Shown piece after piece: positions 12,601 through 42,247 of a stretch of 64,000 nt of DNA. The DNA is from Marine Group III euryarchaeote CG-Epi1 (GTDB taxonomy: Archaea; Thermoplasmatota; Poseidoniia; MGIII; CG-Epi1). Location of the stretch: NCBI GenBank assembly GCA_001875345.1, contig MIZA01000019.1, positions 1,579-65,578 of the forward strand, given 5' to 3'. The notes below the pieces were generated by a model. It saw only the letters and a list, made by a program, of their open reading frames with translations. It did no database searches and was not told the DNA's origin. Made by a program: the position numbers and the translations under genes. How positions within the stretch are numbered: position 1 is the stretch's first letter; each line of letters begins with the position of its first letter.

Positions 12601-15600
12601 AGTTATAAAATTTATAAATTCAGATAACAATTTACTTGTTGCTCAAGATTCTACAACAATCAATTTGGTTGATTCAGCTAATGTGTCCGCTATTGGTTCT
12701 ACTTTTGATTTTGTAATTTGCAATTCAGAATCTTCTCTATATCTAAAGAATTATTTCAGAATAAATGTTACAAGAGATGGTACACCTCTAGAGGGAGTTG
12801 ATCTGAAAGTCTGGGATGGAGATACGACAGTTTATTCAACAGAATATTTCGAAGGTAGTGATGATAAAACCGACTCCGATGGTTTTGTTAGAAATATTCT
12901 TGCAATATACAAAGTATATGATGGAAGTAGTTCAGGTACTGAAAATACCACTCACATCAAGGTTAGATATGGTGATTGGTTCTTGTCTGAAAGCGATATA
13001 TTTGACAAGTACACTATTATCAATGTAGACATTCCAGTATTCAGGGTTTATAATACAAATAGTGAAGATGGTTACAATTACATCCAGAGAGCAATTGATA
13101 ATGCATCTGCAGGAGATGAGATTATTTTATCAGCAGGTACATTTAACGAGAATATATTAATTGACAAAGAGTTGACTTTGACCGGTTCAGGAATTGGTAC
13201 GATTATAACTGTTCAACCACCATTTGGTATGGGTTCTCCACCAATTGCCGATTGGAGAGTGCCTGGAATTAATGTAACCTCATCTAACGTAGCTATTACT
13301 AATGTTTTAATCAGTAATTTCACAGTTGGAATATTAGCATCCAACGCAGACTCCTTACGACTGGATTCTGTTCACGTTTCAGGTATACAAGGAATTGGTA
13401 TTCACATACTATCTTCTGAAAACGTTGAGGCTAATGAAGTTACAGTTGAAGGAAGCGAAGGATCAAACATTATTGTCGAAGACAACTCAACGGGTATGTC
13501 TATTTCCAACTCGTTAATAGGCTGGTCAGAAGAGTCTGGAATAATAGTAAGGCAAAATTCAGATTTCTTTGAAATGAGTTATGTAAACATAGAGAATAAC
13601 GAAGATTATGGATGTCTTATTTCATCAGACTATGCAGATTTATCAAATGTAGTTATCACCAATAACGGTTTGAATGGAATTTATTTAACTTCTTCATTCG
13701 GTAGTTCTTTCACTGATTCTTCATTTAAGGGCAATGGTCTTTCTGAAGTAAAAGTTATTCAGTCAAATTCATTACTAATTGAAAACAGTGAATTTAATAG
13801 TACAGATCAGGATGGAGGAGGTTGGGGAATTGATGTTTCTTCTTCTCTAAATATTGATATTCATTACACGTATTTCGAGCTAGGTATTAGATTTACAGAT
13901 ACTGATGACTCGCATATTAGAGACAGTTATTTTGGTAACATAAGTTATGGTAACAATTACGACCAGAAGACTTCTATTTTACTTAGTGATAGCTTCCGAA
14001 ACAAAATTTCAGATAACGAAATTTATAATGTGGGGCTAGGCTTTGTTATACTTGGCGGATCAAATAACAACTCAATCGAAAATAATACAATTCAGGCAGC
14101 TTCTACTGATATCGAATATTATTCCTCTGGAGCCAACAATACATTTATCAATACAGAAATTGATATAGTAGATATTCTTGAGACCAGTTATTTCGAAATA
14201 TTAAATTACGTAGATATACAAATGTATACTGTTAATGGTCCAGTTGAAGGCGTCGAATTGAATATAACAACAGACGGTAATCCTATATTTGTAACAGAGC
14301 ATTATAGCGGAGACGATGAGGCAACATTTTCGGATGGCTTTATTGGCAGACTATTCTTAGTCAACGAAGTTTACAACGGAAATTGGATTGCTAGCAAACC
14401 TGAAACTGTTGTAGAGTATTATTACGACGATGAAGGATACTCCTATACCTTAGATACTGACGTAAGTGGCTATCAGAAAATTTATGTAAATCTTCGCCCA
14501 ACAGCTACAATTGATTACATTAAGGGCATAGGAGAGAATGCATCACTTATCGGAATTGAAGCGGTTAAAGGGGCAGACAAGCCTATTGTTGACGAATACA
14601 CTACAGCCTATTGGTCCTTTGATGAAGGTGAGGGTTCTGATGCCTCTGGCACCTTTGCCTCAGGAACTATTACACCTTCTCCACTTTGGGAGGAAGGTAG
14701 ACAAGGTTTAGAAGGCGATTATTCAATAGTGTTTGATGGTCTCTTTACTAAATTGACTACAGATATTGTACTTGAAGATCAAGAATTTACTGGAGAAGTA
14801 TGGTTCAAAACTTCTTCAAGCATGCCTATGGTCATTTTTTCAGATAATGATGCTTCAGGTTCTTGGGGACATTCTCTATACATCGACGGAGGCACCTTAG
14901 GATTTGACTTCACAGTTGATGGAGGCTCAGTTATTCGTCTTGATTCATCTGTAGTAGTTACAGATGGAGATTGGCACAATGTAGTTGTTGTAAGAGGTGA
15001 AGACTATGTTGAGTTGTGGTTAGATGGCGAATTTTTAGTAGAAACAAATTATGAGGGTCAAGTTGATTCTTCTTCATCAGTGATATATGTAGGTCAGAAT
15101 CCGCTCGGAGGAGAACTATTTAGCGGAAATATTGACGATTTGAAATTCTCTAACGTTCCAAGGCACAGTGAAGATTTCATGTCAGGCGTTGGCGTAGTTG
15201 AGTTTAGTTCTGTAGTTAATGATGAAGATGGAGTGATTATAGAATACGAATGGCGTTCATCAAGGGATGGAATTATTGGTAGTGATAAGAGGCTATTCTA
15301 TTCAGTAGATGATTTATCCGAAGGAACACATACTATTACTCTTGAAGTTATAGATAATAATGGAACAAGGTCCGATATTGATTCAATGCCACTAACAGTT
15401 ATGATGAGGCCAGATGCTTATTTCTTAAGTGTTAAGGTAAATGGCAGCTCTCAAGCTTGGGGCTGGGATCCAATACCTGTATTCGATGATGAATTTATTG
15501 AAATTAGAGGAGCTTCAGGTACATTACCTGGTCTCATATCTGAATATTATTGGTCCTCAGATTTAGATGGTAAAATAGCAGATGGACTTACTTTGAATAC

Positions 15601-18600
15601 AGATGAGCTGTCCAATGGTACTCACACTATCAAATTTAGTATTAAGGCTACAAATGGTCTCTGGAGTCCTGTTCAAACGTTATTGGTAGATGTTAATGGT
15701 CGACCAGTTATTGAAGCTGACGAAGCTGAATTGTCTGATACTGAAATTCTAAGAATGGGTTCCGCTAATTTCAAGGTACCTGTTGAAGATGACAGTACAG
15801 CAGGAAATGAGTTAGATTACCAAGTTTCTTACAGGGTAGACGGCGGAGAATGGCAGAATGATTACATTTCTAATGTGTCATTTAATGCTCAAAGCTCTGA
15901 TGTTGAATTTGACTTCAGTCCTGATGTAAATGCCGAAACTGGAGATTATGAATTCCGTGTGGTAGCTGATGATGGAGAGGGCGGTAAGCAACAAGTTCAG
16001 CTAACACAGACTATTAACGTTCAGAACAATGCACCAGAAATAGAAATCGATGATGTACCATTAGAGTTTGAAGAAGGTGAAACAATTGATTTCGGTGTAG
16101 AAGTAACGGATGTCGAAGGTGGAACTCCATCTGTAGTATGGTATGCAGATTGTGAAGGACAATGTACAGAAGCTGACGAAATTGGTACTGGTTCCAACTT
16201 CAGTTTTGCAAATAGCTTAGCACCTGGTGATCATACCATTAAAGTTAGAATCTTGGATTCAGAAGGTGGTTACAAAGAGCAAGAATACAATATTGTTGTC
16301 AAAGCAGCTCCTGAAAGCGCAAGCTTAGTTGAGACAGCTATAGCAGATTTGAGCAATAATTTACCATTGTTTGCAAGTGCTGGAATCGGATTGGTTATGA
16401 TTTTAGGAACTTTGCTATTCCGAAGAAGGTCTTCAGCAGAACCAGTAGTCGAAGGTCTTGTAGTTGATGATGGTGTATCACCTCAACAACAGCAAAATCA
16501 GCAAATGCCTCCTACAGAAGTACTAGATTGGGAAATTCCAACGGATGCCCAAGGTCAAGCGTTGATTATTGGTGAATACATGGCAAAACGCCGTGAATCA
16601 TACATCACGCATCCAAATAATGAAGAAGTTTTAGATTACTTGCACAACAACCGTGAAAGATTTACAATATCAACTTATTTTGAAGTTCCAAATGATCCAA
16701 CTAACGTTATTTCAGACTGGGCATTACCTGAAAATTTACGTGGTAATGTTCACTTAGATTCTTTCCGTCAACAAATTGTTGAGAGGATTACAAACAGTTC
16801 ACCAGACAAAAATTTCGTTATTATCGGAGAACCTGGAGTTGGTAAAACGGTAATGTTATTCGAAGTGTTTGACAGATTAATGAACAAAGCTCCTGTAGGC
16901 ATTTTGACCACAGATACAATAGCTAAAGCTCATGAAATGTTCGGAGTACGTGTATTTTACGATGATATACCAGAGAATCAGGATTTAGTCGAAGCTTTAA
17001 CTGAAAATGAAGTTAAAGGAGTCATAGTTAGTTCAAGAGAAGCAGATTGGAAGGCTCTTCCAACAGAAATGCAAGCTAAATTCGATCGCTTGACTGTACC
17101 TCTCTTCAGCGAATTGGATATGAAAGCCATGATTGAGAAAATGATGGGATTCCAAAGTATTGGTCACAATGATGAGGCTGTGGCTATACTTGCAGAATAT
17201 GCAGAAGGAAGCCCAATCTATGTTTGGTCCATGGTTAGAGAAATGATGCACAGGAGTGTCAAAACTTTAACAAAAGAGTACATTGAAGAAAATTCAGTTA
17301 AAGGAATGCTAAATTATGTGGCACAGCTATTACAGAGATTACTCAAAGATGGAGAAGAATATCGTAAAGGAGGTCTCCACGCATTAGCTTCTTTGATTTT
17401 CCTTTCAGATCACATGGAAGAGCGTTACTGTAACGATTATTTCTTTGATGCATACGTTGAAGTTCTGTCCAAGTATACTGAAGAAAAATTAGATGATAAA
17501 ATGAATCCAAAAACATTGAATTTGGTTTTAGCTTATTTACCAATTAACGACAGTGTTATCAGATTCCCTCACGATACTTGGCCGGATGTATTGCAAGGAT
17601 GGGGTGACATGAATCCATTTAGTACAGAATTAAGGATGATAAACCGTGCTTTTGCAGATTCAGGAATATTCCAAGATTTAAAGAAGGAAGTTGTCAAAGA
17701 AGTCTGGGACTCTACATACGAAAGATACAAGAGAACTCCATCCAGGCAAAAGAATTCATTCTTGGCATTGGCAGACACATTATTCCAGAACTTTACTATT
17801 GATGAATTGAAAGAGTTGGGTGTAGACATAGACATTGTTAGGCAAGTTGCATCTACATACTCACACATTCCACAAGCAGCAAAGTTAATTTCCAAAATTC
17901 AAGCTGTTTTACCACAGACAGTTACAAGGATTATCAATATGCAGGACATAGGCTCTGAAAGTAGTCATGCACCGTACAAGATTCAAGAAATGTACTTAAT
18001 TTACAATGATGGTCGAATGCTATCAAGTTTAATGGATGAGGAAGCTAAAGTCGATGAAGATATTATGAGTAGTATGTTAACTGCAATCAATGACTTTGTT
18101 AAGGATTCATTCCAAACAACTGGAAACTTGGGTTCGATAGATTATGGCGAAAATCAAATTATCCTTGAAAGAGGAAAGCATACTATGCTTGCTTCCGTAG
18201 TTTATGGTGAGGCTAACAGAGATTTACGATCTAGAATGAGTCGTGCTTTGACAAAGATTGAAGATGAATTTAAATCAGATATTAAAGATTGGAATGGCGA
18301 CGTTGACAGCCTTAGCGGAACAGTGAAGCATCTTCAACCGATTATGGACATAAGTAAGTCAGTCACAAAAGATATGATTGATGAACTTCAAGCATTAAAA
18401 TCGGTTAACTTACGCTCTAGTTGGACACAGGTTGCAGGATTCGTTCAAGTTAATATTTTGATTAATAATTATTCAAAGAAGCAACTTAAAGGAGCAAAAT
18501 TAACTTTAGAATATGGTGCTGACTTCATGAAGGTAGTAAAAACTGAGCCTAAATTCAAGTACAAGGTTACAGAGGTTGATATCAAGAAAGTACCAGCCAA

Positions 18601-19153
18601 CGATGAAATGCCAGTAACATTGTACTTCGAGCCTTTAAAATCTGCTCAAGCTTCCTTGAACGTTCATTTAGATTATGAGTCAAAAGGTGGAAATGCATCT
18701 GGTGTGTCATCAGCTGTCTTTGAACGTGTTAATTTGTACAAAGAGGGACAATCACTTAACATTGCAGACCTTGAAAATGCAGCAAAGGCCGAGATAGTTC
18801 CAGAAGTTAAACCAGAAGCCGAAGCAGAGCCTGTTGTAGAAGCTGAAGTAGTGGTAGAAGCCGAAGCAGAGCCTGTTGTAGAAGCTGAAGTAGTAGTGGA
18901 AGCAGAGGCTGAAGTTGTTGACCCAGGTGAGTCTGGAGTCGATGATATTATGAGTAAATTGAATGAGTTAGATGGCGATAGTTCTACCGATGACAATGAT
19001 TCAGGTTCTTCAGATGATGACGATGATTTGATGAGTAAGCTAAATGAATTAGATGATCCAGAGAACAAGCCTAAGAAAAAGGAAAAGAAATCTGATGACG
19101 AAGATGATGCTTCAGGTATGGATGATCTTCTCGGTAAACTTGATGAATTATAA
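2..19153 (+). CDS. Giant modular surface protein, 5'-partial (>6,380 aa): multi-beta-helix ectodomain, one TM helix, cytoplasmic STAND-like NTPase tail
   Basis: A single frame is open from nt 2 to TAA 19151-19153 in an AT-rich sequence. The TTG at 59 used by the ORF track is not a real boundary: nt 2-58 continue in frame without a stop (SDAHRNGWNNVIIDTTLDD), so the N-terminus lies upstream of the window. ORFs on the opposite strand or in other frames inside it are short and low-complexity. Domain evidence is itemised in the sub-features below. Confidence 0.93.
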   Translation, partial: SDAHRNGWNNVIIDTTLDDLSIDSNSRLLEKEEVEISVTSNGTYVWNRVNTTIDSDRKANAGLNSFWAGDSNEDTYLDSWSGSFKQKSDISLPSGGVGETRILEIKTWYETENTYDGGQVYITKNSGSTWQLITPIGGYDGSFSGDCGSTGAFMGDKSGLGWQTKRFNLTDYRGEDIRLKFTFCSDGSESDFEGWYVDDIKIIKAADESVVTYSEGFERIGYGWIAQNMAGEVNWEAEGTQIYSGINNADVYVADGNSASIIMNKTSNSNLVNYYKFDENSGNYAYDTVTPTHSAYLYSGATFASGKFGNAISFDGTNDYARNTQCNTVGGCNGYDHYSMSVWVKFDSFPTGTAYEGIANFRYDADAYLAVNSDGNPVFGAYFWGTPSGDHKIEASTEMVTGVWYHIAGTWSEDSDKLRIYVNGTLDGTNTLSGTTAYMRYSQSYNYIGKCVTSSTSCNGGNMDGMVDNLAIFNSELSSSQIKALHEDPLGTNSVLYKTSHFGGSDSKTNSQGKIDNLFILKKIYDGSSSGTSYKPYIGFHQGSWTEDPREVTISGGEHSGKLPDSRVYNRNKGKLYYSISEAASDASTQHVIEVWPGHFKENVYINQRLSIIGSGPSRTIVNGRYLESPFTFDSSSDNSVIKNLAVINSKNTTSCCGTSSMSGGIEIAFSYDMVIDNIRADSYIGIMAYYANDLVIKNSKIVSTSTTHYYGVKIYQQQDYTLTNNEISNYREGVRVEYTYQGFDLENNYIHNNTSYGLYTYYTATTSARSNPFNIVGNRFVDNNYGIYKADSSSSYGYSYHIKDNLFKSSTWDGIYSNYYSREWIVENNTFDGDDDQRYGLYLNRYSYQSVFGNNTFSDHTSNDIYFYYCTCTGTNAVKFFSNSYSSISVVSTALINVYNNLNIRTLDEDNNAFSNVDLEIKDSVSTYYKTAHWGGSDSKTDSSGYVSSPEYIRSGYYSNSATLVDNTITVKIAYGVRAKTTSFTFDSDGTKNIEVPNNFKQGVIENKETETLYSSFSSAVSAASAGDVLQLWAWNYNNLEVTKGVILRGNSTTTAIVDGGSSDHAIEVKSNSVKIENLTLQGSSDSILFAGNYNNLELQNLTISDIGSDNGIHFDGTSSSTISNVTVNSTKRKAILFEDVTSITVKNSFFKNSSSSHGFEISDGSSSVILDNVFIHNAGYDGSSAYGLYVSGSSAVTIKNNTKVASSKSYEFYANGASSLKVQNSTFIGPNIALVEDSDGFLIEKSTFKDSSSGDYGVYIKNTDSGTFKDNKILNSASDDGSDYGALYLTGSKTNLLQNNTITNSGRSGIHLKSSSTDNKIYSNTVSSSYFSGLYVQSSDRSIVRNNSFSSSGDNGIKVSSSDGSIIDNNTLSSNTDYGLYISNSDDMIVKGNTASDNNAGMYLSASDDATISSNTVDDHASYGIYFTDSKRLRVKHNEIKNSLGDAVYLSSNCDSAFIDNNTIKSNGNSDSGRSLRVFEVEDSTFYNNTIDSNDYSGIVLTESSNNKIVHNVIKGNGKYGIQILNDATKSANNTIKDNTINDNSDIAIFNHGIFTTIFNNTIKYNELDGIKIASGGARTTIDSNNLVDNEGKAIAILANNVIIKSNTIDGDSSEIAVSILNANSASIENNTIEGGSQGIKVQNGSNAFIYKNTVKSNSGYGIYLLINSVSGDVKHNTLTDNEDHAMAISASNSTEIYNNTAKENAGYGLYSINSKLLVVKGNTIEDNDGGIKYNNCDYCNLTFNKIDDNGGYGLWFLSGSDNNTIKHNTVSDSSTKDVYLQGSTDNSAFNFTFTSIGVDSTSKLTITANLAIVFEDDDDDGFPGIDFALTSDGVTKYSTPFYGGSDSVSDSNGAAGATFSLVYRVYDGSSTPTNIPNILKYHYGVRSKEKSIDMSTSHTETVSVPSYWVKGLVKNINSGSTWYKIQDAIDNASSGNTLHIWAWTYTENVEVDESIIIIGNGTANTTLNATGGKGFDLTSDDISLSNVKIIDCGDTATYNGVQAAGDDSTIENIIVTGCSHGISAGGSGIWVGNSSLTNNSGAGINVWSGETSTSAVKLYNNLLTLNQNGIYSDEDDVVIKSNNIRNNTANGIYLSNAADAVISGNTIVDNPDGIETTNSSPRTVIKNNVISDSSSNGIKISSANSNNVVFENNTISSSNVYGIFINHSDNIYLGNNTISSSGNKDIRFNKATVGNSGKGNTFLTIQMDGSAYFALFNDLTLKFMQDETTGFSELDVKIISDGSTRYSTSGYGGSDSKTNTNGLLSRDFEFKYNEYDGSSTPSVVYTNISYQYGVRAKEVSVNMTTSHTETITVPSFWKNGLVHNLNSGVKYSTIQDAIDGASSGDVLQLWAYEYVEHDIEVTERVTLVGNSTSSVIVNGTWSDSIFDITTNSIVLKNMTIESSANGTTKECIEVSSGSGIVIKNLILKNCYNGIVVNTSNVDITNVTVQDSAKDGIVASASNIDISNVIVKNSGDDGIVISSSSTTLENSTIQNNADDGIVLVANAFIYKNIIKSNSGIGINIGEGSDYARILSNTIDDNDGHGVYVYESHHVKLTNNVIEDNEDYGLELRFANFTQIHNNSVDDNDGGIKFVSTKYSNITKSSFNDNNGRGIWFTSSSDSNNIRDSSASGSTDDDLELDSSSKNTGFNFTFGDGSIDVDSDSDFRLMNSLNIRFVDENGDAFSGLDIELFNHDTVLYATDFFGGSKATSNSTGYIAEELTVAYEIYNGSSTTEDVDTTLQYHYGVRGKTKQIDMSSSHTETITVQSYWTKGLVKNTNTGTNYYKIQDAIDNSSVEDILHVWAWTYNENIEIDESISVIGNGTSNTTINGTWNRIITISSDEVTVKNLKLVSGSNTTSLVYIDAEYAILEGLEIHGGYQAIEVKSRYAKISDSHVSGQSYSGIQVKAQGLNLEIANSIIRNSESNGIYVELGANYVDINNNSIHNNSGSGIRFQSAASSLKDNVVVDNDDWGIQINGRTADDIDNVVTNNTILRNGDGLKLFKQDSVLYSNIIKDNDGFGLQIDTSQDIYIWNNTISENDGTDIGMSTGSSAYSIGTSFSTISVSSDSILTLKSYIDLNVTDARGLNISGIDIRIKEGDSVKYSTDYFGGNDPKTDNNGTIATFLINSKEYDGSSTPTIIPTSVSARSNDWVETNTFDPANSIEITVPDLRVLNTRLDDSPLYYNIQTAIDNADEGDTIHAWSGIYFENIEISDEITLKGNGTSTIINGTSGTAIEINDNDISVEDLLIISSEKGIFLNAANDITISTIRFTGNEYAIYIEDSQSALIDNNEFDLEEYGIYFTGSSSGATVEYNKFRNATESAIYQSESDENGGTSIHDNMFNDCAIGWQSGSGSNTFSSNALKDNNYGVRLTGIESYNNMLDSNSFDDSIVAVYIYNTAHDNNLFNNEFDDSDNSDIKLSDSSDTVSFNNTFSDVSVSSDANMWIKVYIDVTVYDNSSNTFEGADIEVKQDNLALYSTAYFGGSDDKTNSSGQIDTFLVATDQYNGSSTPSEVITTVTARYSDWINAETYDVEASITIEVLDFRVYNEDTEELFYSINGAIAGSFDGDTIQVWEGTFRELVLVDKELTIVGNGTSKTVINGTFSGNTVTVESNEVSISDLAIVASSSTGSGLYVEGGDGQFINLRLSYNNISYQSVEDFNEIKESDIRNNNLGILLSGDNNIINNNEFSDNNIGIELNEECEDATIEHNEISDSLQSGMFINKAETNVIKFNNINNNSGYGIHSYSASENHIFSNDLSYNSDISLYLESTGNSSIHNNTFIGNDDYPATVTDSYYNVIRDNKFVANDDYFQFFEAGGYNSLVNNTFDESGIILEDSNNQIISDNTISESSENGIKIYKSSSNNYLSGNTISDSDDEDIYIGGSGYQRNNRGYDNIFSTIEVQNNGQFILMDYVNVRTENSEGNMSGNDVQAVYNSEIFYASEYFSGSDPLTDDSGLVPDFLAPVEEYNGSSTPDEILTTITVRYVDWINLFEMDASDDTSLSVFVPDLRVKNINTGEESYHIQTSVNNAGQSDTIIVSNGTYFENVVLNVQKITLRGPYANQLNENVIIDSQDNGIAVTISKAEIKLFGFNITNSHEEEDVFTSSAVRVLSNGNTLSFNKVTNSYAGILLEDTSDNTISYNSIDDVDFGIVLTKADDNQIRYNTILDSEENDIELTNTGYSTGSSGNTISHNEEIGVIKFINSDNNLLVAQDSTTINLVDSANVSAIGSTFDFVICNSESSLYLKNYFRINVTRDGTPLEGVDLKVWDGDTTVYSTEYFEGSDDKTDSDGFVRNILAIYKVYDGSSSGTENTTHIKVRYGDWFLSESDIFDKYTIINVDIPVFRVYNTNSEDGYNYIQRAIDNASAGDEIILSAGTFNENILIDKELTLTGSGIGTIITVQPPFGMGSPPIADWRVPGINVTSSNVAITNVLISNFTVGILASNADSLRLDSVHVSGIQGIGIHILSSENVEANEVTVEGSEGSNIIVEDNSTGMSISNSLIGWSEESGIIVRQNSDFFEMSYVNIENNEDYGCLISSDYADLSNVVITNNGLNGIYLTSSFGSSFTDSSFKGNGLSEVKVIQSNSLLIENSEFNSTDQDGGGWGIDVSSSLNIDIHYTYFELGIRFTDTDDSHIRDSYFGNISYGNNYDQKTSILLSDSFRNKISDNEIYNVGLGFVILGGSNNNSIENNTIQAASTDIEYYSSGANNTFINTEIDIVDILETSYFEILNYVDIQMYTVNGPVEGVELNITTDGNPIFVTEHYSGDDEATFSDGFIGRLFLVNEVYNGNWIASKPETVVEYYYDDEGYSYTLDTDVSGYQKIYVNLRPTATIDYIKGIGENASLIGIEAVKGADKPIVDEYTTAYWSFDEGEGSDASGTFASGTITPSPLWEEGRQGLEGDYSIVFDGLFTKLTTDIVLEDQEFTGEVWFKTSSSMPMVIFSDNDASGSWGHSLYIDGGTLGFDFTVDGGSVIRLDSSVVVTDGDWHNVVVVRGEDYVELWLDGEFLVETNYEGQVDSSSSVIYVGQNPLGGELFSGNIDDLKFSNVPRHSEDFMSGVGVVEFSSVVNDEDGVIIEYEWRSSRDGIIGSDKRLFYSVDDLSEGTHTITLEVIDNNGTRSDIDSMPLTVMMRPDAYFLSVKVNGSSQAWGWDPIPVFDDEFIEIRGASGTLPGLISEYYWSSDLDGKIADGLTLNTDELSNGTHTIKFSIKATNGLWSPVQTLLVDVNGRPVIEADEAELSDTEILRMGSANFKVPVEDDSTAGNELDYQVSYRVDGGEWQNDYISNVSFNAQSSDVEFDFSPDVNAETGDYEFRVVADDGEGGKQQVQLTQTINVQNNAPEIEIDDVPLEFEEGETIDFGVEVTDVEGGTPSVVWYADCEGQCTEADEIGTGSNFSFANSLAPGDHTIKVRILDSEGGYKEQEYNIVVKAAPESASLVETAIADLSNNLPLFASAGIGLVMILGTLLFRRRSSAEPVVEGLVVDDGVSPQQQQNQQMPPTEVLDWEIPTDAQGQALIIGEYMAKRRESYITHPNNEEVLDYLHNNRERFTISTYFEVPNDPTNVISDWALPENLRGNVHLDSFRQQIVERITNSSPDKNFVIIGEPGVGKTVMLFEVFDRLMNKAPVGILTTDTIAKAHEMFGVRVFYDDIPENQDLVEALTENEVKGVIVSSREADWKALPTEMQAKFDRLTVPLFSELDMKAMIEKMMGFQSIGHNDEAVAILAEYAEGSPIYVWSMVREMMHRSVKTLTKEYIEENSVKGMLNYVAQLLQRLLKDGEEYRKGGLHALASLIFLSDHMEERYCNDYFFDAYVEVLSKYTEEKLDDKMNPKTLNLVLAYLPINDSVIRFPHDTWPDVLQGWGDMNPFSTELRMINRAFADSGIFQDLKKEVVKEVWDSTYERYKRTPSRQKNSFLALADTLFQNFTIDELKELGVDIDIVRQVASTYSHIPQAAKLISKIQAVLPQTVTRIINMQDIGSESSHAPYKIQEMYLIYNDGRMLSSLMDEEAKVDEDIMSSMLTAINDFVKDSFQTTGNLGSIDYGENQIILERGKHTMLASVVYGEANRDLRSRMSRALTKIEDEFKSDIKDWNGDVDSLSGTVKHLQPIMDISKSVTKDMIDELQALKSVNLRSSWTQVAGFVQVNILINNYSKKQLKGAKLTLEYGADFMKVVKTEPKFKYKVTEVDIKKVPANDEMPVTLYFEPLKSAQASLNVHLDYESKGGNASGVSSAVFERVNLYKEGQSLNIADLENAAKAEIVPEVKPEAEAEPVVEAEVVVEAEAEPVVEAEVVVEAEAEVVDPGESGVDDIMSKLNELDGDSSTDDNDSGSSDDDDDLMSKLNELDDPENKPKKKEKKSDDEDDASGMDDLLGKLDEL
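811..1460 (+). other. LamG/concanavalin-A-like lectin domain 1 of giant protein
   Basis: LVNYYKFDENSGNYAYD...GKFGNAISFDGTNDYA...YSMSVWVKFDSF...LRIYVNGTLDG...MDGMVDNLAIFNSELSSSQIKAL. This is collinear with the classical Laminin_G_3 pattern (YWKFDE..G....D.SG; SFDG..DYV; LYVNG; DEVRIYNRALS..EI). Confidence 0.8.
1490..14480 (+). repeat. Array of ~9 right-handed parallel beta-helix (PbH1/NosD-like) modules separated by 10 copies of a prealbumin/CarboxypepD_reg-like linker domain
   Basis: Each module opens with a NosD-type cap, e.g. YKIQDAIDNASSGNTLHIWAWTYTENVEVDESIIIIGNGT. It then runs through 20-23-aa coils of the type 'NNTI..N...GI.L..S..N.I'. The linker signature Y-[SKA]-T-x-[YFHW]-[FWY]-G-G-S-D-x-K-T-[DN]-x-x-G ... 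Y-[DN]-G-S-S-[TS] occurs at about nt 1490, 2789, 5519, 6745, 8102, 9316, 10438, 11827, 12831 and 14288. Confidence 0.8.
14594..15180 (+). other. LamG/concanavalin-A-like domain 2 of giant protein
   Basis: TTAYWSFDEGEGSDASG...YSIVFDGLFTKL...FTGEVWFKTSS...VELWLDGEFLVE...FSGNIDDLKFSNVPRHSEDF. Confidence 0.75.
15180..16310 (+). other. Four PKD/Ig-like domains (membrane-proximal stalk) of giant protein
   Basis: Four units of ~90 aa each, containing patterns such as I..YEWRSS.DG.IG......Y....LSEGTHTITLEV.D..G and LAPGDHTIKVRILDSEGG. Confidence 0.6.
16361..16420 (+). other. Single transmembrane helix of giant protein (type-I orientation)
   Basis: LPLFASAGIGLVMILGTLLF is followed immediately by RRRSS (positive-inside). 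It is the only strongly hydrophobic ~20-aa segment I could find in the visible protein. Confidence 0.75.
16790..17250 (+). other. Cytoplasmic P-loop NTPase, STAND (NB-ARC/NACHT/archaeal ATPase)-like
   Basis: Walker A FVIIGEPGVGKTV (GEPGVGKT = nt 16826-16849); Walker B VRVFYDDIPE; sensor-1-like GVIVSSRE (compare hhhTTR); LTVPLFSELDMKAMI; GxP motif AEYAEGSPIYVW. The order matches that in NB-ARC. Confidence 0.6.
17975..18271 (+). other. Longin/roadblock(LC7)-like alpha/beta domain (predicted from pattern only)
   Basis: YKIQEMYLIYNDGRMLSSL..DEDIMSSMLTAINDFVKDSF..LGSIDYGENQIILERGKHTMLASVVYGE..LRSRMSRALTKIEDEF gives a beta-alpha-beta-beta-alpha periodicity. Confidence 0.35.
18410..18680 (+). other. 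Cytoplasmic beta-sandwich (CARDB/Ig-like) domain
   Basis: An alternating hydrophobic beta pattern: VAGFVQVNILINNYSKKQLKGAKLTLEYG...VTEVDIKKVPANDEMPVTLYFEP...ASLNVHLDYE. Confidence 0.3.
18815..18898 (+). repeat. Two tandem copies of a 42-nt coding repeat
   Basis: gaagccgaagcagagcctgttgtagaagctgaagtagtggta (18815-18856) is repeated at 18857-18898 with differences only in the last few bases. It encodes (EAEAEPVVEAEVVV)x2, followed by a partial third unit EAEAEVV. Confidence 0.9.
18941..19150 (+). repeat. Three copies of an acidic amphipathic peptide motif DD[IL][ML]xKL[ND]EL at the extreme C-terminus
   Basis: DDIMSKLNELD (18941-18973), DDLMSKLNELD (19022-19054) and DDLLGKLDEL-stop (19121-19150), separated by D/S/K-rich spacers. 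Confidence 0.85.
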
Positions 19154-19291: not shown

Positions 19292-20215
19292 ATGACAGAT
19301 AGCACAGAAGCTGAACAAAGCCTTTCTATGGCTTGGGAAGAGAACAGAATCCCAATCATAGCTCTGGCGTTTTGTTTTATTTTGTCTCATATGTTAGCTA
19401 TGTTTATAGTTCCAGCATATGAAGAAGCTGAAGTGCAAGCTTTTGAAGACCCTGAAGATCCAATTAACTCAGTCGTTTACATCGGGATTATTCTAGTTTT
19501 TACAGCTTTTATTTTATGGATTGCCAAGAATGGCTTAGATTATATCCTGCAATTGATATTTCTATCCTCAATAGGTGTAACTTTTATTTATGTTTTTTAC
19601 CCATTTTTTTACAGTATTGGAATAACAGATACTGCAGGATACATTGGTGCAGCAGGTTTAGCAGTTCAGTTGACTTTCTTACTAATGACGTATCCAGAGT
19701 GGTATGTTATTGATATTGCAGGAGTAATTTTAGCGGCAGGTGTTGCAGCAATTTTTGGTATATCTTTTGGATTATTACCTGCGTTGCTTCTATTGATTGG
19801 TCTAGCAATTTATGATGCTTGGGCAGTGTATCGTACTGGACATATGGTAGATTTAGCAGATTCAGTTATGGATCTCAAACTTCCTATTTTACTTGTTATG
19901 CCTAAAACTAGCTCATATTCTTTTTTGTCACAAGGAAGCTTGAATGAACAAATTGAAAGTGGAGAAAAGAGAGAAGCCTTATTCATGGGTTTAGGAGACT
20001 TAGTAATTCCTGGAGCCTTAGTTGTTTCTGCTAAGGCTACCTTGGGTTGGGCAGTGGGCCTAGCGTCTATGTTTGGAAGTGTTGTTGGTTTCTTTATTTT
20101 GATGATTTTTGTTCTTAGTGGAAGGCCTCAGGCTGGGCTTCCCTTACTCAACGGTGGGGCAATTGTTGGGTATTTGTTAGGAGCCTTTCTATTCGCTGGC
20201 GATTTAGGTTTATGA
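19292..20215 (+). CDS. Presenilin/signal-peptide-peptidase homologue (A22 intramembrane aspartyl protease, PSH type)
   Basis: Polytopic hydrophobic profile. Catalytic YD (LAIYDAWAVY, nt 19811-19816) and GxGD (FMGLGDLVIPG, nt 19988-19999) motifs, plus a C-terminal PAL-like GLPLLNGG. Confidence 0.8.
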   Translation: MTDSTEAEQSLSMAWEENRIPIIALAFCFILSHMLAMFIVPAYEEAEVQAFEDPEDPINSVVYIGIILVFTAFILWIAKNGLDYILQLIFLSSIGVTFIYVFYPFFYSIGITDTAGYIGAAGLAVQLTFLLMTYPEWYVIDIAGVILAAGVAAIFGISFGLLPALLLLIGLAIYDAWAVYRTGHMVDLADSVMDLKLPILLVMPKTSSYSFLSQGSLNEQIESGEKREALFMGLGDLVIPGALVVSAKATLGWAVGLASMFGSVVGFFILMIFVLSGRPQAGLPLLNGGAIVGYLLGAFLFAGDLGL

Positions 20216-20955
20216 AGATAGTTCCTGTTCATGGCCATGCGGCCTTAAATTTAGTTGATGAATCACTTCTAATCCTTTCAGATTTACACTATGGCGTTGA
20301 AGCTGAAATGCTTCGTAGCGGGGTTTGGGTTCCTAACAGATCAACCTCTCGAACTGAAAAAGTTTTGAAATTATTAAAAGATACTAAATCTAACAGACTA
20401 CTTCTCTTAGGAGATGTTAAGCATCAAGTTCCACATAATAGTCAACAACAAAGGAAAGATTTAGATCAATTTTTTATGGCAGTCATGAGAATTGCTGATG
20501 TAGAAATAGTACCTGGTAACCATGACGGAGGATTAGATTCTATTGCACCTCCAGAGGTCATTTACCACGATTCCAGCGGATGCACTATTGGAGACATTGG
20601 TTTTGCTCATGGCCATGCTTGGCCTTCGCAAGAGGTAATGAATTCTAGATTACTCATAGTGGGTCACGAGCATCCTGCGTTTTCATTTCGCGATAGGGTA
20701 GACAAATTGCACAGTGAGTCTTGCTGGTTGAGAGCTCCAATGTTAGAGCATGAAAGATATGAAAAAGTTCCAGAACAATTAATTGTAATGCCTGCTTTTG
20801 GAGAATTAGCTGGAAGAACGATGAATAGGGAACCATTGAAAGGTTTGGGCCCTATACTAAGAAATGGTATGGCAGATTTATCTAAAGCACGTGTAGAGAC
20901 TTTAGAAGGATTAGACTTTGGAGAATTAGGCAATCTAATAGATTTAAGATTATGA
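20212..20955 (+). CDS. Binuclear metallophosphoesterase (MPE/ICC-like, Lhr-associated)
   Basis: Motifs LSDLHYG, LLLGDVKH, VPGNHD, GFAHGHAWP and VGHEHP. The start overlaps the upstream stop (ATGA 20212-20215) and the stop overlaps the Lhr start (ATGA 20952-20955). Confidence 0.8.
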   Translation: MKIVPVHGHAALNLVDESLLILSDLHYGVEAEMLRSGVWVPNRSTSRTEKVLKLLKDTKSNRLLLLGDVKHQVPHNSQQQRKDLDQFFMAVMRIADVEIVPGNHDGGLDSIAPPEVIYHDSSGCTIGDIGFAHGHAWPSQEVMNSRLLIVGHEHPAFSFRDRVDKLHSESCWLRAPMLEHERYEKVPEQLIVMPAFGELAGRTMNREPLKGLGPILRNGMADLSKARVETLEGLDFGELGNLIDLRL

Positions 20956-23636
20956 AAATCAATTCAGATTTGCTAAAAGCATTAGAAACACGAGGACTTT
21001 CCGAGCCGACACTAGCTCAATCTTCAACTTGGCCAGTAATTGATTCAGGTTCCAATGTTCTTTTGATCGCGCCAACTGGAGTTGGAAAGACCGAAGCAGC
21101 TATGGTTCCTTTGTTTCATAGACTTTTGGAGACTGAACTCAAGCCAATTAGCATTCTATACATTACACCTCTTCGCTCTTTGAACAGAGACATGCTTCGT
21201 AGATTGGAAGATATTGGCTCAGAACTTGGAATTAGCGTGGCTGTAAGACACGGAGATACTTCACAGTCAGAAAGGAGTCGACAATCTCGTAATCCTCCAC
21301 AAATATTGATCACTACTCCTGAAACTTTGCAAATTATGCTTTCGGGGAAGAGACTGCGAAAGAATCTTTCTGGAGTTGAAGCTGTAGTAATAGATGAAGT
21401 TCATGAGTTGGCTTCAAGTGAAAGAGGCGCTCAGCTGAGCATAGCTCTTGAGAGATTGGCTTTACTTGCAGGAGATTTCCAAAGAGTAGGTCTAAGTGCT
21501 ACAGTCGGAACCCCTAAGGAAGTATCATCATTTTTAGTAGGAGATAGAGATGTCCAAATTTTAACTCCTAAACTTGAAAGAAACATGGATCTATTGGTAC
21601 ATGCGCCTGAGCCAGTGTCTGATGATGATGAACTAGTAAATGAGTTGTATTGGGAACCAGAACGAGTTGCAGCCCTCAGATATTCTGCAAAAGCCTCAGA
21701 AATGGGGCCTACGTTACTTTTTGTTAACACTAGAGATACAGCTGAAGCAATGGGAGTCCGATGGAATATGTGGGATCCTGATGCAAGTATCCATGTACAT
21801 CACGGTTCATTGAGTAAAGATGTGAGAATAGATGCAGAGGAGGATTATCGAAAAGGCTCTGTTAATACTCTGATATGTACTTCATCCTTAGAATTGGGAA
21901 TCGACGTAGGAAATACAGCATTAGTAATTCAATATAATTCACCAAGGGACGCTTCTCGCATGAGTCAAAGGTTAGGAAGATCAGGACATAAGATCAAGGA
22001 AACTGCTATCGGAAGAATAGTATCTACCGAAGAAACTCAAATTTTAGAGTCTGCAGTTATTGCTCGTCGAACTCTATCAGGAGAATTAGAGCCGTCAAGA
22101 ATCCGTGAAATGCCGTTGGCAGTTCTTGCAAATCAAATAATTTCCTGGACAGTCTGTGATAAAAATGTGGATAAGAAAACATTTTTGGACACAATTAAAC
22201 GAGCTTACCCTTTTAAGAAATTTAACGAGGAAAACCTAACAGACATGCTCGATTTATTGGATAAGGTCCATCAAAATCGAACAATTGGTAAAGCAGTTAG
22301 ACAAGGCCCTAGGGCAATGAAATATTTCCATGGTAACTTGTCATTAATCCCAGACCAGCGAACTTCAGGGGTAAGAGATATCACAACTAGAAAGATGATA
22401 GGAAGACTAGATGAACGTTTTATTCTAGATCTTGTCCCTGGAGATAAAATAGTTTTCAGAGGTTCAGTATGGGCCGTAGTTGAAATTGATGAAGAGGTGA
22501 CAGTTTCTCCTTCATCATCTTTAGGCGAATTGCCAAGATGGATTGGTGAGGATATTCCAGTTCCCTTTTCTGTTGCGCAAGAGGCATCCCAAAGATTGTC
22601 AGACGGAAATTGGGCCGGTTTACCAATTACTCGAGAGGCATTAGATGTACTTCAAAAATATCATGAAGATATAGCTGACGCAGGAGTAATGCCATCACCT
22701 TCATGTCTAACTGTTGAGCAACATGAAAGGTTATTCATCTTGAACTATCCTGGTGGAAGCAGATTAAACCGTACAATAGGTATGATAGTTACTGCAATGT
22801 TAACTGCAAAAAGTGGATATAAAATAGGATTTCAATTTGATCCTTACAGGATTATTCTAGATGTTCCTGCTAGAACAACTGTTAAAGATTTACTTGCCAT
22901 TTTGAAAGGCTTTGTTCCTGAGGTAGGTAGTTTGTTAAGATTTGCGATAAAAGATAGTCCTTCCTTGAAACCACAACTTCTTCATTCAGCAAGGAAAATG
23001 GGAGCTATTGCTCCAGATGCAGATATTGGAAAGTTTGGTATGAAAAAATTAATGGAGGCGTATTCGGATACTCCACTATACACAGAAGCAGTTGAAAGAT
23101 TTTTATTTCATCAATTAGACGAAAACGGAATGGAAGATTTTATCCACCAAATCAATTCTGGAGATATTTCTATAAAACTCTCTCCGAAAACTCCCCATGG
23201 ACATGCAGGTTTAGATCCTTACAGAGACTACCTCAAGCCTCCTAAATCAGATAGTTCCGTAGTTACAGCTGTAAAAAGACGTTTACATCGAACAGATTTA
23301 TCTCTTAGATGTTTATCTTGTGACAATTCTAGAAAAAGAAAAGTAAAGATGATTACTAAGCATGAATTAGTATGTCCAAATTGTAACAGTAGAATGATAG
23401 CTTTACTTCATCCAATGGAGCTTAACCGAGAAGTGAGTAACAAGAAACTAACTAAGTCAGCTTCATTGGCAAGATCTCACGGCGAAAGAGCAGCTTTAGT
23501 AATTGCAGGAAGAGGTATTGGCCCAGATACTGCAGGTAGAATTTTGAGAAAGCAGTTGAGAGATGAATCAGATTTAGTTAAGGCCATAATCGAAGCTGAA
23601 ATCACATATGCAAGAACAAGACGCTTCTGGGATTAA
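20952..23636 (+). CDS. lhr: Lhr-type DEAD/DEAH-box (superfamily 2) ATP-dependent helicase with C-terminal zinc ribbon
   Basis: Walker A APTGVGKTEA, DEVH (VVIDEVHEL), SAT (LSATVG), HHGSLSKDVR...LICTSSLELGIDVG and QRLGRSGH. C-terminal CLSCDN...CPNCNS. Confidence 0.9.
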   Translation: MKINSDLLKALETRGLSEPTLAQSSTWPVIDSGSNVLLIAPTGVGKTEAAMVPLFHRLLETELKPISILYITPLRSLNRDMLRRLEDIGSELGISVAVRHGDTSQSERSRQSRNPPQILITTPETLQIMLSGKRLRKNLSGVEAVVIDEVHELASSERGAQLSIALERLALLAGDFQRVGLSATVGTPKEVSSFLVGDRDVQILTPKLERNMDLLVHAPEPVSDDDELVNELYWEPERVAALRYSAKASEMGPTLLFVNTRDTAEAMGVRWNMWDPDASIHVHHGSLSKDVRIDAEEDYRKGSVNTLICTSSLELGIDVGNTALVIQYNSPRDASRMSQRLGRSGHKIKETAIGRIVSTEETQILESAVIARRTLSGELEPSRIREMPLAVLANQIISWTVCDKNVDKKTFLDTIKRAYPFKKFNEENLTDMLDLLDKVHQNRTIGKAVRQGPRAMKYFHGNLSLIPDQRTSGVRDITTRKMIGRLDERFILDLVPGDKIVFRGSVWAVVEIDEEVTVSPSSSLGELPRWIGEDIPVPFSVAQEASQRLSDGNWAGLPITREALDVLQKYHEDIADAGVMPSPSCLTVEQHERLFILNYPGGSRLNRTIGMIVTAMLTAKSGYKIGFQFDPYRIILDVPARTTVKDLLAILKGFVPEVGSLLRFAIKDSPSLKPQLLHSARKMGAIAPDADIGKFGMKKLMEAYSDTPLYTEAVERFLFHQLDENGMEDFIHQINSGDISIKLSPKTPHGHAGLDPYRDYLKPPKSDSSVVTAVKRRLHRTDLSLRCLSCDNSRKRKVKMITKHELVCPNCNSRMIALLHPMELNREVSNKKLTKSASLARSHGERAALVIAGRGIGPDTAGRILRKQLRDESDLVKAIIEAEITYARTRRFWD

Positions 23637-28018: not shown

Positions 28019-29068
28019 GTGTTAAACGATAAGGCCAAGCAAATATTCTCTCGCCAGATTACACTGCCAGAGGTTGGTGAGAAAGGTCAAGAAGAATTAG
28101 AAGACACAGGTATTTTGATTGTCGGAATGGGTGGTCTTGGTTGTCCTGTAGCACATTATTTGGTTAGCTCAGGTATAGGATACTTGACTTTAATGGATCC
28201 TGATAAAGTTGAATTATCAAATTTATCAAGGCAGCCCCTTTATTCAGAGGCTGATGTTGGTAATTTGAAGGTAGATACAGCTAAGAAAGTGTTGGCTAAT
28301 ATGAACCCTACAGCAGTTATTAATGAAGTTTCGGAAGAATTGAATAAAGATAATGCATTAACTTATGTTAGCTCTCACGATTTTGTTATTGATTGTACAG
28401 ATAACGTAGATTCAAGATATATCCTTTCAGATATTTGTCAGTCAATTGACAAACCATTGATTCATGGTGGAATTAGAGCGTTTGAAGGAAATACTGGAGT
28501 TTTTCTTCCAGGTAGTGGCTATTATCGTGCATTATACCCTAAGCCTCCTTCTCCTGAATCAATTCAAGATTGCTCAACTACTGGAGTTCTCAGTAGTTTT
28601 GTCGGTTGGGTTGGGATGCATCAAGCCATGTTAGCGGTTCAATTAGCCTTAGATTTGATTAAAGAATCTTCTTTTTACTTCTTAGATGGTAGAAAGGGTA
28701 CAATTAGACAAGTCGAAGTTCCCGACGCAGTTGTTGAGGAAGCAAAGGAGTTATCGAAAGCATTACCAGATCACATGTCTGCATCTGAGCTAAAGCAAAG
28801 ATTAGATTCAGATAATCCCCCTATGCTAATAGATGTTAGAGGCCTTGCAGAAAGAAACGAGGTTCGCATTGAGGCTACTGACATGCACATTCCTATGGAT
28901 ATATTTGCACAAAGTTTAGAAGCAATTCCAAAAGATGGCAATGTAGTTCTTTATTGTCATTTAGGTATACGCTCTAACGCTGCAAGAGCTTGGGTTGAAT
29001 CACAAGGAATCCCAATAAGCCATTTAAGCGGCGGAATAGAAGCCTGGTTATTTGATCAGGGCTTTTAA
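28019..29068 (+). CDS. ThiF/MoeB/UbaA-type E1-like adenylyltransferase with C-terminal rhodanese domain
   Basis: FSRQI.LPEVGEKGQE.L....ILIVGMGGLGCPVAHYL (nucleotide-binding GxGxxG) and LSNLSRQPLY. Rhodanese active-site loop: VVLYCHLGIRSNAA. Confidence 0.85.
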   Translation: MLNDKAKQIFSRQITLPEVGEKGQEELEDTGILIVGMGGLGCPVAHYLVSSGIGYLTLMDPDKVELSNLSRQPLYSEADVGNLKVDTAKKVLANMNPTAVINEVSEELNKDNALTYVSSHDFVIDCTDNVDSRYILSDICQSIDKPLIHGGIRAFEGNTGVFLPGSGYYRALYPKPPSPESIQDCSTTGVLSSFVGWVGMHQAMLAVQLALDLIKESSFYFLDGRKGTIRQVEVPDAVVEEAKELSKALPDHMSASELKQRLDSDNPPMLIDVRGLAERNEVRIEATDMHIPMDIFAQSLEAIPKDGNVVLYCHLGIRSNAARAWVESQGIPISHLSGGIEAWLFDQGF

Positions 29069-33931: not shown

Positions 33932-33948
33932 TTACAGCAAGATTGAAG

Positions 33949-33956
33949 TTTTTTTT
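33949..33956 (+). terminator. Oligo-T tract (T8), a possible archaeal terminator or attenuator after the TSP3 gene
   Basis: gaagTTTTTTTTggc lies 18 nt after the TAA at 33929-33931. Confidence 0.35.
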
Positions 33957-34006
33957 GGCATACCTTTATTTAACAACAGAAATTTATCTAGGTCGGTGTA
34001 GAGAAC

Positions 34007-39934: not shown

Positions 39935-39935
39935 C

Positions 39936-42243: not shown

Positions 42244-42247
42244 TTCA

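Follow-up and report, generated by a model that had tools for sequence, protein, structure and literature searches.

INTRODUCTION

STAND NTPases, including the NLRs, are known as soluble intracellular sensors, and we know of no example in which such a switch reads an extracellular domain across the membrane. In characterized STANDs, an ADP-bound closed state is held through a histidine of the winged-helix domain (WHD), and the proteins oligomerize after nucleotide exchange; a C-terminal repeat sensor is typical of the class, although not universal. Here we describe a giant open reading frame (ORF) of the Marine Group III (MG-III) euryarchaeote CG-Epi1, contained in a 64,000-nucleotide stretch of contig MIZA01000019.1 (positions 1,579 to 65,578, forward strand; hereafter the window), in which nucleotides 16361–19153 of the plus strand encode a transmembrane helix and a 910-residue C-terminal tail of one continuous ORF. 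The product is very probably a giant type I surface protein whose cytoplasmic side carries a STAND NTPase module, a longin-like domain, a beta-sandwich, and an acidic tail. The fuller statement, in which this architecture is combined with a mechanism and the tail would act as a membrane-tethered nucleotide switch working from the outside in, draws on analogy, and we regard the case for it as evenly balanced.

Several described systems resemble parts of this protein. The nSTAND3 (PF20720)/Avs5 SIR2-STAND antiviral proteins share with it Walker A, hhhhDD, (S/T)(S/T)R, LxPL, and GxP motifs and a winged helix with a conserved histidine. Unlike them, the giant protein has neither an N-terminal enzymatic effector nor a C-terminal repeat sensor and falls below the Pfam cutoff; its module, anchored at the membrane, comes after more than 5,400 residues of ectodomain and carries a family-specific region of about 70 residues ahead of the nucleotide-binding domain (NBD) as well as a C-terminal IINIQDSVIS sequence. 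NB-ARC/NACHT NLRs (Apaf-1, plant R proteins, and animal NLRs) have the same succession of NBD, first helical domain (HD1), WHD, and second helical domain (HD2), with the sensor 1, GSPIY (GxP/GLPL-like), and PHD (MHD-like) motifs equivalently placed, but NLRs are soluble cytosolic sensors, whereas the giant protein is integral to the membrane and has a huge extracellular part. KAP-family P-loop NTPases are likewise membrane associated and STAND related, but their transmembrane helices are inserted within the P-loop domain; the giant protein has one transmembrane helix before an intact cytoplasmic module, and its bulk is extracellular.

Giant archaeal and bacterial adhesin-like proteins with beta-helix, LamG, and PKD arrays match its ectodomain makeup and single C-terminal transmembrane anchor, but they normally end a few residues past that anchor, whereas this protein runs 910 conserved cytoplasmic residues further. 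Longin and Roadblock platforms (MglB, Ragulator LAMTORs, the N-domains of AP sigma and mu subunits, SRX, and the DENN longin) share the predicted ββαβββα order and, through stand-alone homologues of the giant protein's domain, GTPase neighbors; the domain described here, however, has no detectable similarity to Robl_LC7, Longin, Clat_adaptor_s, or any PDB chain and is fused to a STAND NTPase. AP mu subunits also combine a longin domain with a beta-sandwich, but theirs is a mu-homology domain of about 270 residues, compared with one Ig-like domain of about 110 residues here.

The full-text literature on Poseidoniales and Marine Group II (MG-II) giant proteins, nSTAND3, transmembrane STANDs, and archaeal longin-GTPase modules yielded no description of this architecture or of a STAND NTPase-longin fusion; a first-pass annotation, made from the sequence alone, had not recognized the tail as a described family. 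The transmembrane and extracellular contexts treated by Kaur et al. 2020 (PMC7159879) do not include it, and the Thermococcales Ig-protein module (PMC8416519) is unrelated. None of the three components (STAND NTPase, longin-like platform, and giant adhesin-like protein) is new in itself; their combination, and the wider receptor-plus-STAND family of the Poseidoniia described below, does not appear to have been described and is apparently new. If the proposed mechanism is correct, it would define a new class of archaeal signaling receptor in one of the most abundant archaeal groups of the ocean surface, whose dealings with particles, algae, and viruses are poorly understood. The findings should be relevant to the cell biology of archaea and to how NLR-like and GTPase signaling evolved, and they supply specific residues to mutate and domain limits on which biochemical work can build.

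Continuity, topology, and conservation of the giant protein

Because frame 2 of the window is free of stop codons from base 2 onward, the start of the gene must lie upstream, and the protein exceeds 6,383 residues. The first-pass annotation had given an ectodomain of about 5,400 residues; a large ectodomain is indeed present (nucleotides 2–16360; at least 5,453 residues, as judged from the frame and Pfam, with its N terminus upstream of the window), but because the ORF leaves the window at its 5′ end, that figure is a lower bound. All features of the gene lie on the plus strand, and residues are numbered by listing convention from the start assigned by the ORF lister, a TTG at nucleotide 59 (6,364 codons); the stop codon is at 19151–19153. 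Pfam recognizes about 20 stretches of right-handed beta-helix (NosD and Beta_helix, the latter at E values of 7e-137 and 3e-78), two LamG domains (Laminin_G_3), and membrane-proximal PKD/Ig-like domains (PKD and Big_13) in the ectodomain, a makeup of the kind seen in adhesins and polysaccharide-binding proteins.

In a Kyte-Doolittle scan of the whole protein, the segment LPLFASAGIGLVMILGTLLF (residues 5435–5454; nucleotides 16361–16420) was the sole 19-residue stretch with a mean of at least 1.5 (value, 2.11). An acidic/neutral stretch precedes it, and the stop-transfer sequence RRRSS follows on its C-terminal, cytoplasmic side. At the equivalent position, all orthologues and a second giant paralogue (paralogue B, below) have a hydrophobic helix followed by R/K residues. 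The extracellular type of the upstream modules, together with this positive-inside flank, gives a predicted N-out, C-in orientation, that is, a type I single-pass protein with a cytoplasmic tail of 910 residues. Hydropathy and orthologues thus bear out the transmembrane helix with RRRSS and the cytoplasmic tail of about 910 residues proposed by the first-pass annotation. Smaller members of the family (P0031, P0034, and L041_803) begin with signal peptides.

Among 5.8 billion proteins, 213 relatives were found, the named ones being marine Thermoplasmatota, Poseidoniia, or MG-III, and 43 loci were returned from GTDB species-representative genomes. The STAND module of the window is 97% identical to that of the MG-III metagenome-assembled genome MGIII-CG-Epi1 LRMED-008. 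In about 27 loci, which represent independent species-level MG-III/Poseidoniia assemblies and include single-cell genomes, ectodomain, transmembrane helix, and tail lie in one uninterrupted frame that is open from the edge of the locus, with the helix about 150 residues before Walker A. The tail had been described as hard-wired through the membrane, and this holds in the orthologues, where both the transmembrane helix and the Walker motifs are kept; an assembly junction between two genes at about 16.3 kb is excluded by the recurrence of the same frame. Of the 22 giant-type loci that include the 3′ end, 21 have a frame that finishes with MDDLLGKLDEL or a close variant, and the same motif also closes two tail fragments that are truncated at their 5′ ends. 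Two giant paralogues with the tail are present per MG-III genome, paralogue A at 60 to 97% identity to the window and paralogue B at about 51%, alongside soluble paralogues.

Conservation differs sharply between the two sides of the membrane. In four orthologues at moderate divergence, each compared with the window, identity was 32 to 46% in the ectodomain, 81 to 96% in the STAND module, 88 to 92% in the longin-like domain, 81 to 91% in the beta-sandwich, and 52 to 65% in the acidic tail; for the juxtamembrane linker, it was 18 to 48% in these four and 12 to 48% across orthologues other than the closest one, L011. The latter was more similar throughout, with 72% identity in the ectodomain and 79% in the linker. 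The cytoplasmic domains are under far stronger constraint than the surface part.

Two groups of contigs call for comment. A 350-kb long-read contig (L001; ERZ28548065 contig_13417_pilon) has three compared downstream genes that are about 98 to 99% identical to those of the window, and frameshifts interrupt many of its genes, the giant one among them, a pattern of long-read assembly error and not of biology. Module-bearing contigs are also present in bacterial bins (L026, L028, L039, L042, L046, L048, and L049) assigned to Dehalococcoidia, Neomarinimicrobiota, Rhodospirillaceae, and Kiritimatiellia; these contigs are short (1.4 to 9.9 kb) and 39 to 89% identical to the window module, and from their sequences they probably reflect mis-binning rather than lateral transfer. 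A bacterial origin of the homologues in these four groups of bins was considered and set aside on that judgment, the homologues being 45 to 89% identical to archaeal sequences.

The STAND NTPase module

The STAND module (residues 5488–5963) follows a poorly conserved juxtamembrane linker (residues 5455–5487; nucleotides 16421–16519) that AlphaFold2 (AF2) modeled with a predicted local distance difference test (pLDDT) score below 50. It opens with a family-specific helical region ahead of the NBD (16520–16783), which has many invariant columns and the motifs W..PP..L, LHNNRER, SSYFEIP, and WALPxNLRGNVHLD; AF2 places helices at model residues 31–48, 53–61, 78–84, and 99–109, and only the last ~30 residues of the region are common to distant relatives. 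The NBD and its helical lid, HD1, occupy 16784–17263, with five parallel strands predicted at model residues 117–210 and lid helices at 216–262. Within them lie Walker A (GEPGVGKT, K5596; 16826–16849), Walker B (VFYDDIPE, D5635/D5636; 16952–16975), sensor 1 (VSSRE, R5660; 17027–17041; strand at model residues 186–190), an LxPL motif (LTVPLFSELDM, residues 5678–5688; 17090–17122), and a GxP motif (GSPIYVW, G5717-P5719; 17207–17227). The remainder of the module (17264–17947) is predicted to be a winged-helix domain (model residues 303–376, helix-strand-helix-helix-hairpin) and then a helical, HD2-like domain (model residues 386–481 helical) that ends in IINxQD. Directly after the predicted beta-hairpin wing (model residues 359–370) stands an invariant MHD-like motif that the first-pass annotation had lacked, FPHDTW (H5838; 17564–17581).

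The Walker A and B, sensor 1, and GxP motifs quoted in that annotation were all found at their positions, and all are invariant in 33 homologues at 46 to 89% identity. In module numbering, the invariant positions are G121, P123-K127, D166/D167, R191, G248-P250, and H369/D370, and the corresponding motifs are GEPGVGKT, hhhYDD, hhh(S/T)(S/T)R, LTVPLF..E, GSPIY, and FPHD(T/S)W. The motifs are not matches by chance. A distant archaeal tier retains the G and K of Walker A and the DD of Walker B and has (T/S)AR at sensor 1 and G(L/S/C)P(V/I/M)Y at GxP, and PHD(S/T)W is kept in MG-II/III and Asgard/Korarchaeota relatives. The AF2 model of the module (pLDDT, 83.9) contains NBD, helical lid, winged helix, and helical domain, and its best PDB match in Foldseek was EfAvs5 (9jap_A; E value, 2e-6), with NLRP2/7 and SAMD9 in the top 20.

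The family profile, run against 1.84 billion representatives, returned 281 matches, and the family is therefore small; a second tier of matches includes Asgard- and Korarchaeota-named proteins. Relatives recovered with this profile at E values of 1e-67 to 1e-20 exceed the nSTAND3 gathering score; for example, P0252, P0215, and P0237 (family-profile E values of 6e-30, 2e-56, and 5e-36) score 39.5, 31.2, and 30.9 bits against a cutoff of 27.2. Avs5 NTPases are annotated as nSTAND3, and the distant relatives P0230 and P0234 consist of the NTPase and C-terminal WD40 repeats. Because the motifs, the predicted fold, and this transitive nSTAND3 link converge, they support the assignment of the module to the STAND class, as a putative divergent branch of an nSTAND3/Avs5-like clade outside Pfam NB-ARC and NACHT. 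The STAND-like NTPase of the first-pass annotation is upheld in this form.

One further motif touches this module. Of 119 family proteins, 62 have a STAND module that ends in the pattern [IV]x[IV]x[DE]S[IV][IVL]x[RKH][ST], as in INIQDSVISRS, and a degenerate copy is present at 17927–17947 of the window. It is found at the C termini of P0034, P0062, P0190, P0285, P0295, P0303, P0297, and P0316, and is repeated once or twice at the C terminus of STAND-less receptor-like proteins with a coiled-coil/sandwich cassette. It might act in assembly or in interaction through a beta-strand.

The longin-like domain, sandwich, and acidic tail

The beta-alpha-beta-beta-alpha segment reported by the first-pass annotation is present (nucleotides 17990–18271), within a domain of predicted ββαβββα topology (residues 5973–6076; 17975–18286; pLDDT, 67 to 93) whose AF2 elements are E14-23, E28-33, H41-58, E67-70, E73-79, E83-91, and H95-111. 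A model of residues 5960–6260 (pLDDT, 79) comprises this longin-topology domain, two linker helices (residues 6077–6115; 18287–18403), and a nine-stranded Ig-like (CARDB-like) sandwich (residues 6116–6225; 18404–18733). With this two-domain longin-plus-sandwich model, the top 16 PDB matches in Foldseek were mainly AP-1/2/3 mu subunits, plus delta-COP and the BBSome, at E values of 7e-8 to 9e-6, TM-scores (TMq) of 0.23 to 0.30, and 7 to 11% identity. Membership among the AP mu-adaptins was rejected on the strength of the single ~110-residue sandwich (against a ~270-residue mu-homology domain), the low identity and TM-scores, and the lack of a Pfam match.

A profile of the longin-like domain finds 114 proteins, mostly stand-alone and 130 to 217 residues long, the named ones being Thermoplasmata. 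In all six loci sampled, a gene for an Arf/Ras/Roc-type small GTPase lies one to three genes from the stand-alone longin homologue, and the GTPases of those loci are mutually 36 to 44% identical. One locus encodes a 471-residue protein with a signal peptide, an ectodomain, transmembrane helices, and a cytoplasmic longin-like domain 39% identical to that of the giant protein; its gene lies between genes for a soluble longin-like paralogue and a 185-residue Ras-like GTPase. The neighborhood of the stand-alone homologues is therefore support independent of the predicted fold, and together they support a reading of the domain as a putative longin/roadblock-type GTPase platform; a small GTPase partner for the giant protein would follow by extension. 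These searches define a longin-like family that had not been annotated before and whose genes are linked to small GTPase genes in Thermoplasmatota and at some loci of probably bacterial origin; the family is relevant to how far longin/roadblock-GTPase modules extend beyond Asgard archaea.

Other occurrences of the longin-like domain were noted. Locus L041 has, 1.2 kb upstream of paired receptor and soluble-STAND genes, a 582-residue ORF (471–2219) that joins ThiF/MoeB-like and rhodanese-like regions (both labels assigned by eye and by comparison with window 28019–29068) to a coiled coil and, at the C terminus, a longin-like domain of this family. In two probably bacterial loci (L057, 5001–6686; L058, 5001–6442), the order is stand-alone longin-like gene, OmpA-domain gene, small GTPase gene; the OmpA-domain neighbor accounts for the JGI label "OOP family OmpA-OmpF porin" on some homologues.

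Past the sandwich, the last 139 residues (18734–19150) form an acidic, low-complexity tail with 34% D+E, and the beta-sandwich followed by an acidic tail in the first-pass annotation is thus recovered by AF2 and by composition. The tail holds three copies of [DE][DE][ILVM][LMF]x[KR][LI]x[ED][LIF], a short DDLLxKLxEL helix: VDDIMSKLNEL (18938–18970), DDDLMSKLNEL (19019–19051), and MDDLLGKLDEL (19118–19150), the last of which is the C terminus of the protein. We take the core LxxKLxxL after acidic residues to resemble the ESCRT-III MIM1 pattern. Among 119 soluble paralogues that bear the module, 47 begin with residues similar to the motif, such as MSYEEILEKIKK, MSYDEVLKLLET, and MTYESLLSKLNE (P0062, P0090, P0045, and others).

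Fused and split forms of the receptor-like family

The STAND module, about 475 residues long, behaves as a cassette and stands behind two kinds of giant ectodomain in each genome. In P0031, P0034, P0035, and P0192, it follows a signal peptide, a WD40/PKD ectodomain, and one transmembrane helix, and P0192 also has the longin-like domain and the sandwich; in P0033 it follows seven transmembrane helices. Complete modules also occur as soluble proteins of 572 to 845 residues, which answers the question of whether part of the tail exists as a stand-alone gene. The sandwich of the giant protein is homologous to one N-terminal of the STAND module in soluble paralogues: its hidden Markov model matches the N-terminal cassette of other family proteins, Pfam CARDB matches the same cassette, and the order in the soluble paralogues is coiled coil, CARDB-like sandwich, and STAND module.

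At five loci of a ~575-residue soluble paralogue, the gene directly upstream, where covered, encodes a beta-propeller/PKD ectodomain with a transmembrane helix. The stop codon of this receptor-like gene abuts or overlaps the start of the STAND gene, and two short loci keep only its C-terminal end. Because receptor and STAND module occur in both fused and split arrangements, functional coupling of ectodomain and module is likely.

P0292, a related, receptor-like metagenomic protein of 1,194 residues, combines LVIVD beta-propeller repeats and a transmembrane helix with the coiled-coil/CARDB-like cassette and ends in a TIR domain, so that in effect the STAND module is swapped for a classic immune effector. 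In locus L004 (454–7906, minus strand, and 10538–13388), an 838-residue soluble STAND paralogue has on its flank a divergent cluster that comprises a membrane ATPase of HerA/DUF87-like type, several genes without annotation, and a truncated longin-like ORF; a DUF805 gene and a faint primase-like gene lie downstream. This cluster could be a mobile or conflict element.

Proposed mechanism and alternative explanations

Our preferred mechanism is drawn from the behavior of characterized STANDs. Engagement or clustering of the ectodomain would release an ADP-locked state closed by the PHD histidine, and nucleotide exchange would then allow the cytoplasmic STAND modules to oligomerize under the membrane. 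The assembled tails would present longin-like domain, sandwich, and C-terminal motifs to cytoplasmic partners, of which a small GTPase is the best candidate. We infer the direction of signaling, the oligomerization, and the GTPase partner by analogy.

Several points weigh against this reading. The evidence does not separate outside-in from inside-out signaling, and the N-terminal signal peptide of the giant protein lies outside the window, as its N terminus is upstream. For the STAND module, Foldseek TMq values are low (0.25 to 0.32), with FtsH, ClpC, RuvB, and the clamp loader nearly equal to the STANDs; direct matches to curated STAND profiles are below threshold (AAA_16, 22.7 bits against 32.6; nSTAND3, 19.2 against 27.2); and Pfam detects none of the classic C-terminal repeat sensors (WD40, TPR, or LRR) in the tail. 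The window protein has no match at an E value of 1 or less to Pfam NB-ARC (PF00931) or NACHT (PF05729), other matches of the tail in Pfam and NCBIfam (AAA_22, Avs4, NACHT-EruA, and Orc1/Cdc6) are likewise sub-threshold, and a profile search of PDB sequences gave only Walker-A-level matches to ClpB. Such sub-threshold matches recur in the family (AAA_16 in 30, nSTAND3 in 17, NACHT in 9, and NB-ARC in 2 of 33 members). HMMER against NB-ARC, NACHT, and ATPase profiles thus places the tail among P-loop proteins below threshold, with relatives that pass nSTAND3, but yields no direct threshold match.

The longin assignment, for its part, has no sequence support. Its profile, compared with Pfam and PDB, gave no PDB match below an E value of 1.8; Robl_LC7 was matched by 1 of 10 members (E value, 0.14) and was not found in the direct Pfam scan of the tail, and hhalign against approximate sequences of AP2 sigma and LAMTOR2 gave probabilities below 1%. 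A small GTPase gene was not found in the 64-kb window, and an MG-III origin is not established for any of the six loci with a linked GTPase. The longin/roadblock-like module of the first-pass annotation consequently stands on its predicted fold and on the GTPase neighbors of its homologues, and falls short on sequence profiles.

An alternative to outside-in regulation is that the protein is a receptor for conflict or immunity, whose ectodomain would sense viruses, foreign cells, or kin at the surface and whose nSTAND3/Avs-like module would oligomerize to bring about a defensive or suicidal response. Avs5 is the closest solved structure, the NCBIfam matches just mentioned include Avs4 and the NACHT protein EruA, the related cassette protein P0292 ends in a TIR domain, and one soluble paralogue lies beside HerA-like and primase-like genes; a fast-diverging ectodomain on a conserved tail and several paralogues per genome also suit such a role. 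The Avs4 equivalog score, however, is 18.8 bits against a cutoff of 1500, and Pfam and NCBIfam recognize no toxic effector (nuclease, SIR2, TIR, or pore former) in the giant protein's tail. Unlike a variable defense island, the gene keeps a fixed chromosomal position with housekeeping synteny (the SPP, Metallophos, and Lhr genes described below) from 60% to 97% identity, and the longin-GTPase link points to regulation and not to killing. We therefore consider a conflict receptor unlikely, though worth keeping in mind.

Alternatively, signaling could run from the inside out or be mainly structural, with nucleotide-dependent STAND oligomers that cluster, position, or stabilize adhesins, as in integrin-like avidity or a cell-coat scaffold, while the longin-like domain and C-terminal motifs dock the complex to cytoplasmic or division machinery. 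The canonical output of a STAND protein is the variable part N-terminal of the NTPase, a place here occupied by the ectodomain; moreover, Pfam finds no enzymatic output domain in the tail, and the protein, encoded at a core locus of the genome, is conserved. Soluble paralogues that lack any membrane part are harder to accommodate, and the split operon, receptor first and STAND second, suggests information transfer between two proteins over mere anchoring. On balance, such an inside-out role seems improbable, without being far-fetched.

A third possibility would involve the gene 138 nucleotides downstream (19292–20215, plus strand), which encodes an archaeal presenilin/SPP-type intramembrane aspartyl protease (Pfam SPP; E value, 8e-79). 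Presenilin-type proteases cleave single-pass transmembrane helices, and a Notch-like cleavage of LPLFASAGIGLVMILGTLLF would free the STAND-longin tail into the cytoplasm. The SPP gene follows paralogue A in 18 loci, at 60 to 99% identity. It never follows paralogue B, however, whose tail is the same, and in every locus long enough to show them, it is accompanied by genes for a calcineurin-like phosphoesterase (Metallophos) and an Lhr-type helicase (window 19292–23636 for the three), so that plain colinearity of a conserved block explains the adjacency; an ectodomain-shedding site was not identified. With housekeeping genes equally conserved in the block and no SPP neighbor for paralogue B, the functional link was set aside, and Notch-like release is in our view very unlikely.

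That the gene is an artifact, with an adhesin gene joined by chimeric assembly or read-through to what is really a distinct gene for a cytoplasmic ATPase, could be argued from the soluble forms of the ATPase and from one near-identical long-read contig with the giant gene in many pieces, but that contig is an error-prone polished assembly with adjacent genes fragmented too, and the unbroken frame over the junction in about 27 independent assemblies effectively refutes the idea.

Returning to the outside-in switch, a broader formulation can be offered, tentatively and with considerable doubt: that non-Asgard archaea of MG-II and MG-III possess a true transmembrane receptor family in which an extracellular array of up to more than 5,400 residues would be coupled by a single helix with an NLR-type STAND switch and a longin platform for a Ras/Arf-like GTPase. 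Such a protein would be a prokaryotic hybrid of integrin/adhesion receptor, NLR oligomerization, and small-GTPase signaling, perhaps further controlled by the neighboring presenilin-type protease and MIM-like C-terminal helices.

A second surface-protein cluster in the window

Elsewhere in the window, nucleotides 31007–43495 hold a second cluster of large surface proteins. It includes a 974-residue protein with TSP3 repeats and a 1,975-residue protein with CarboxypepD_reg, Big, alpha-2-macroglobulin-like MG2/MG4, and DUF4129 domains, followed by DUF4350, a MoxR-type AAA_3 ATPase, and a DUF58/vWA protein, an arrangement that corresponds to a Bat/MoxR-like operon.

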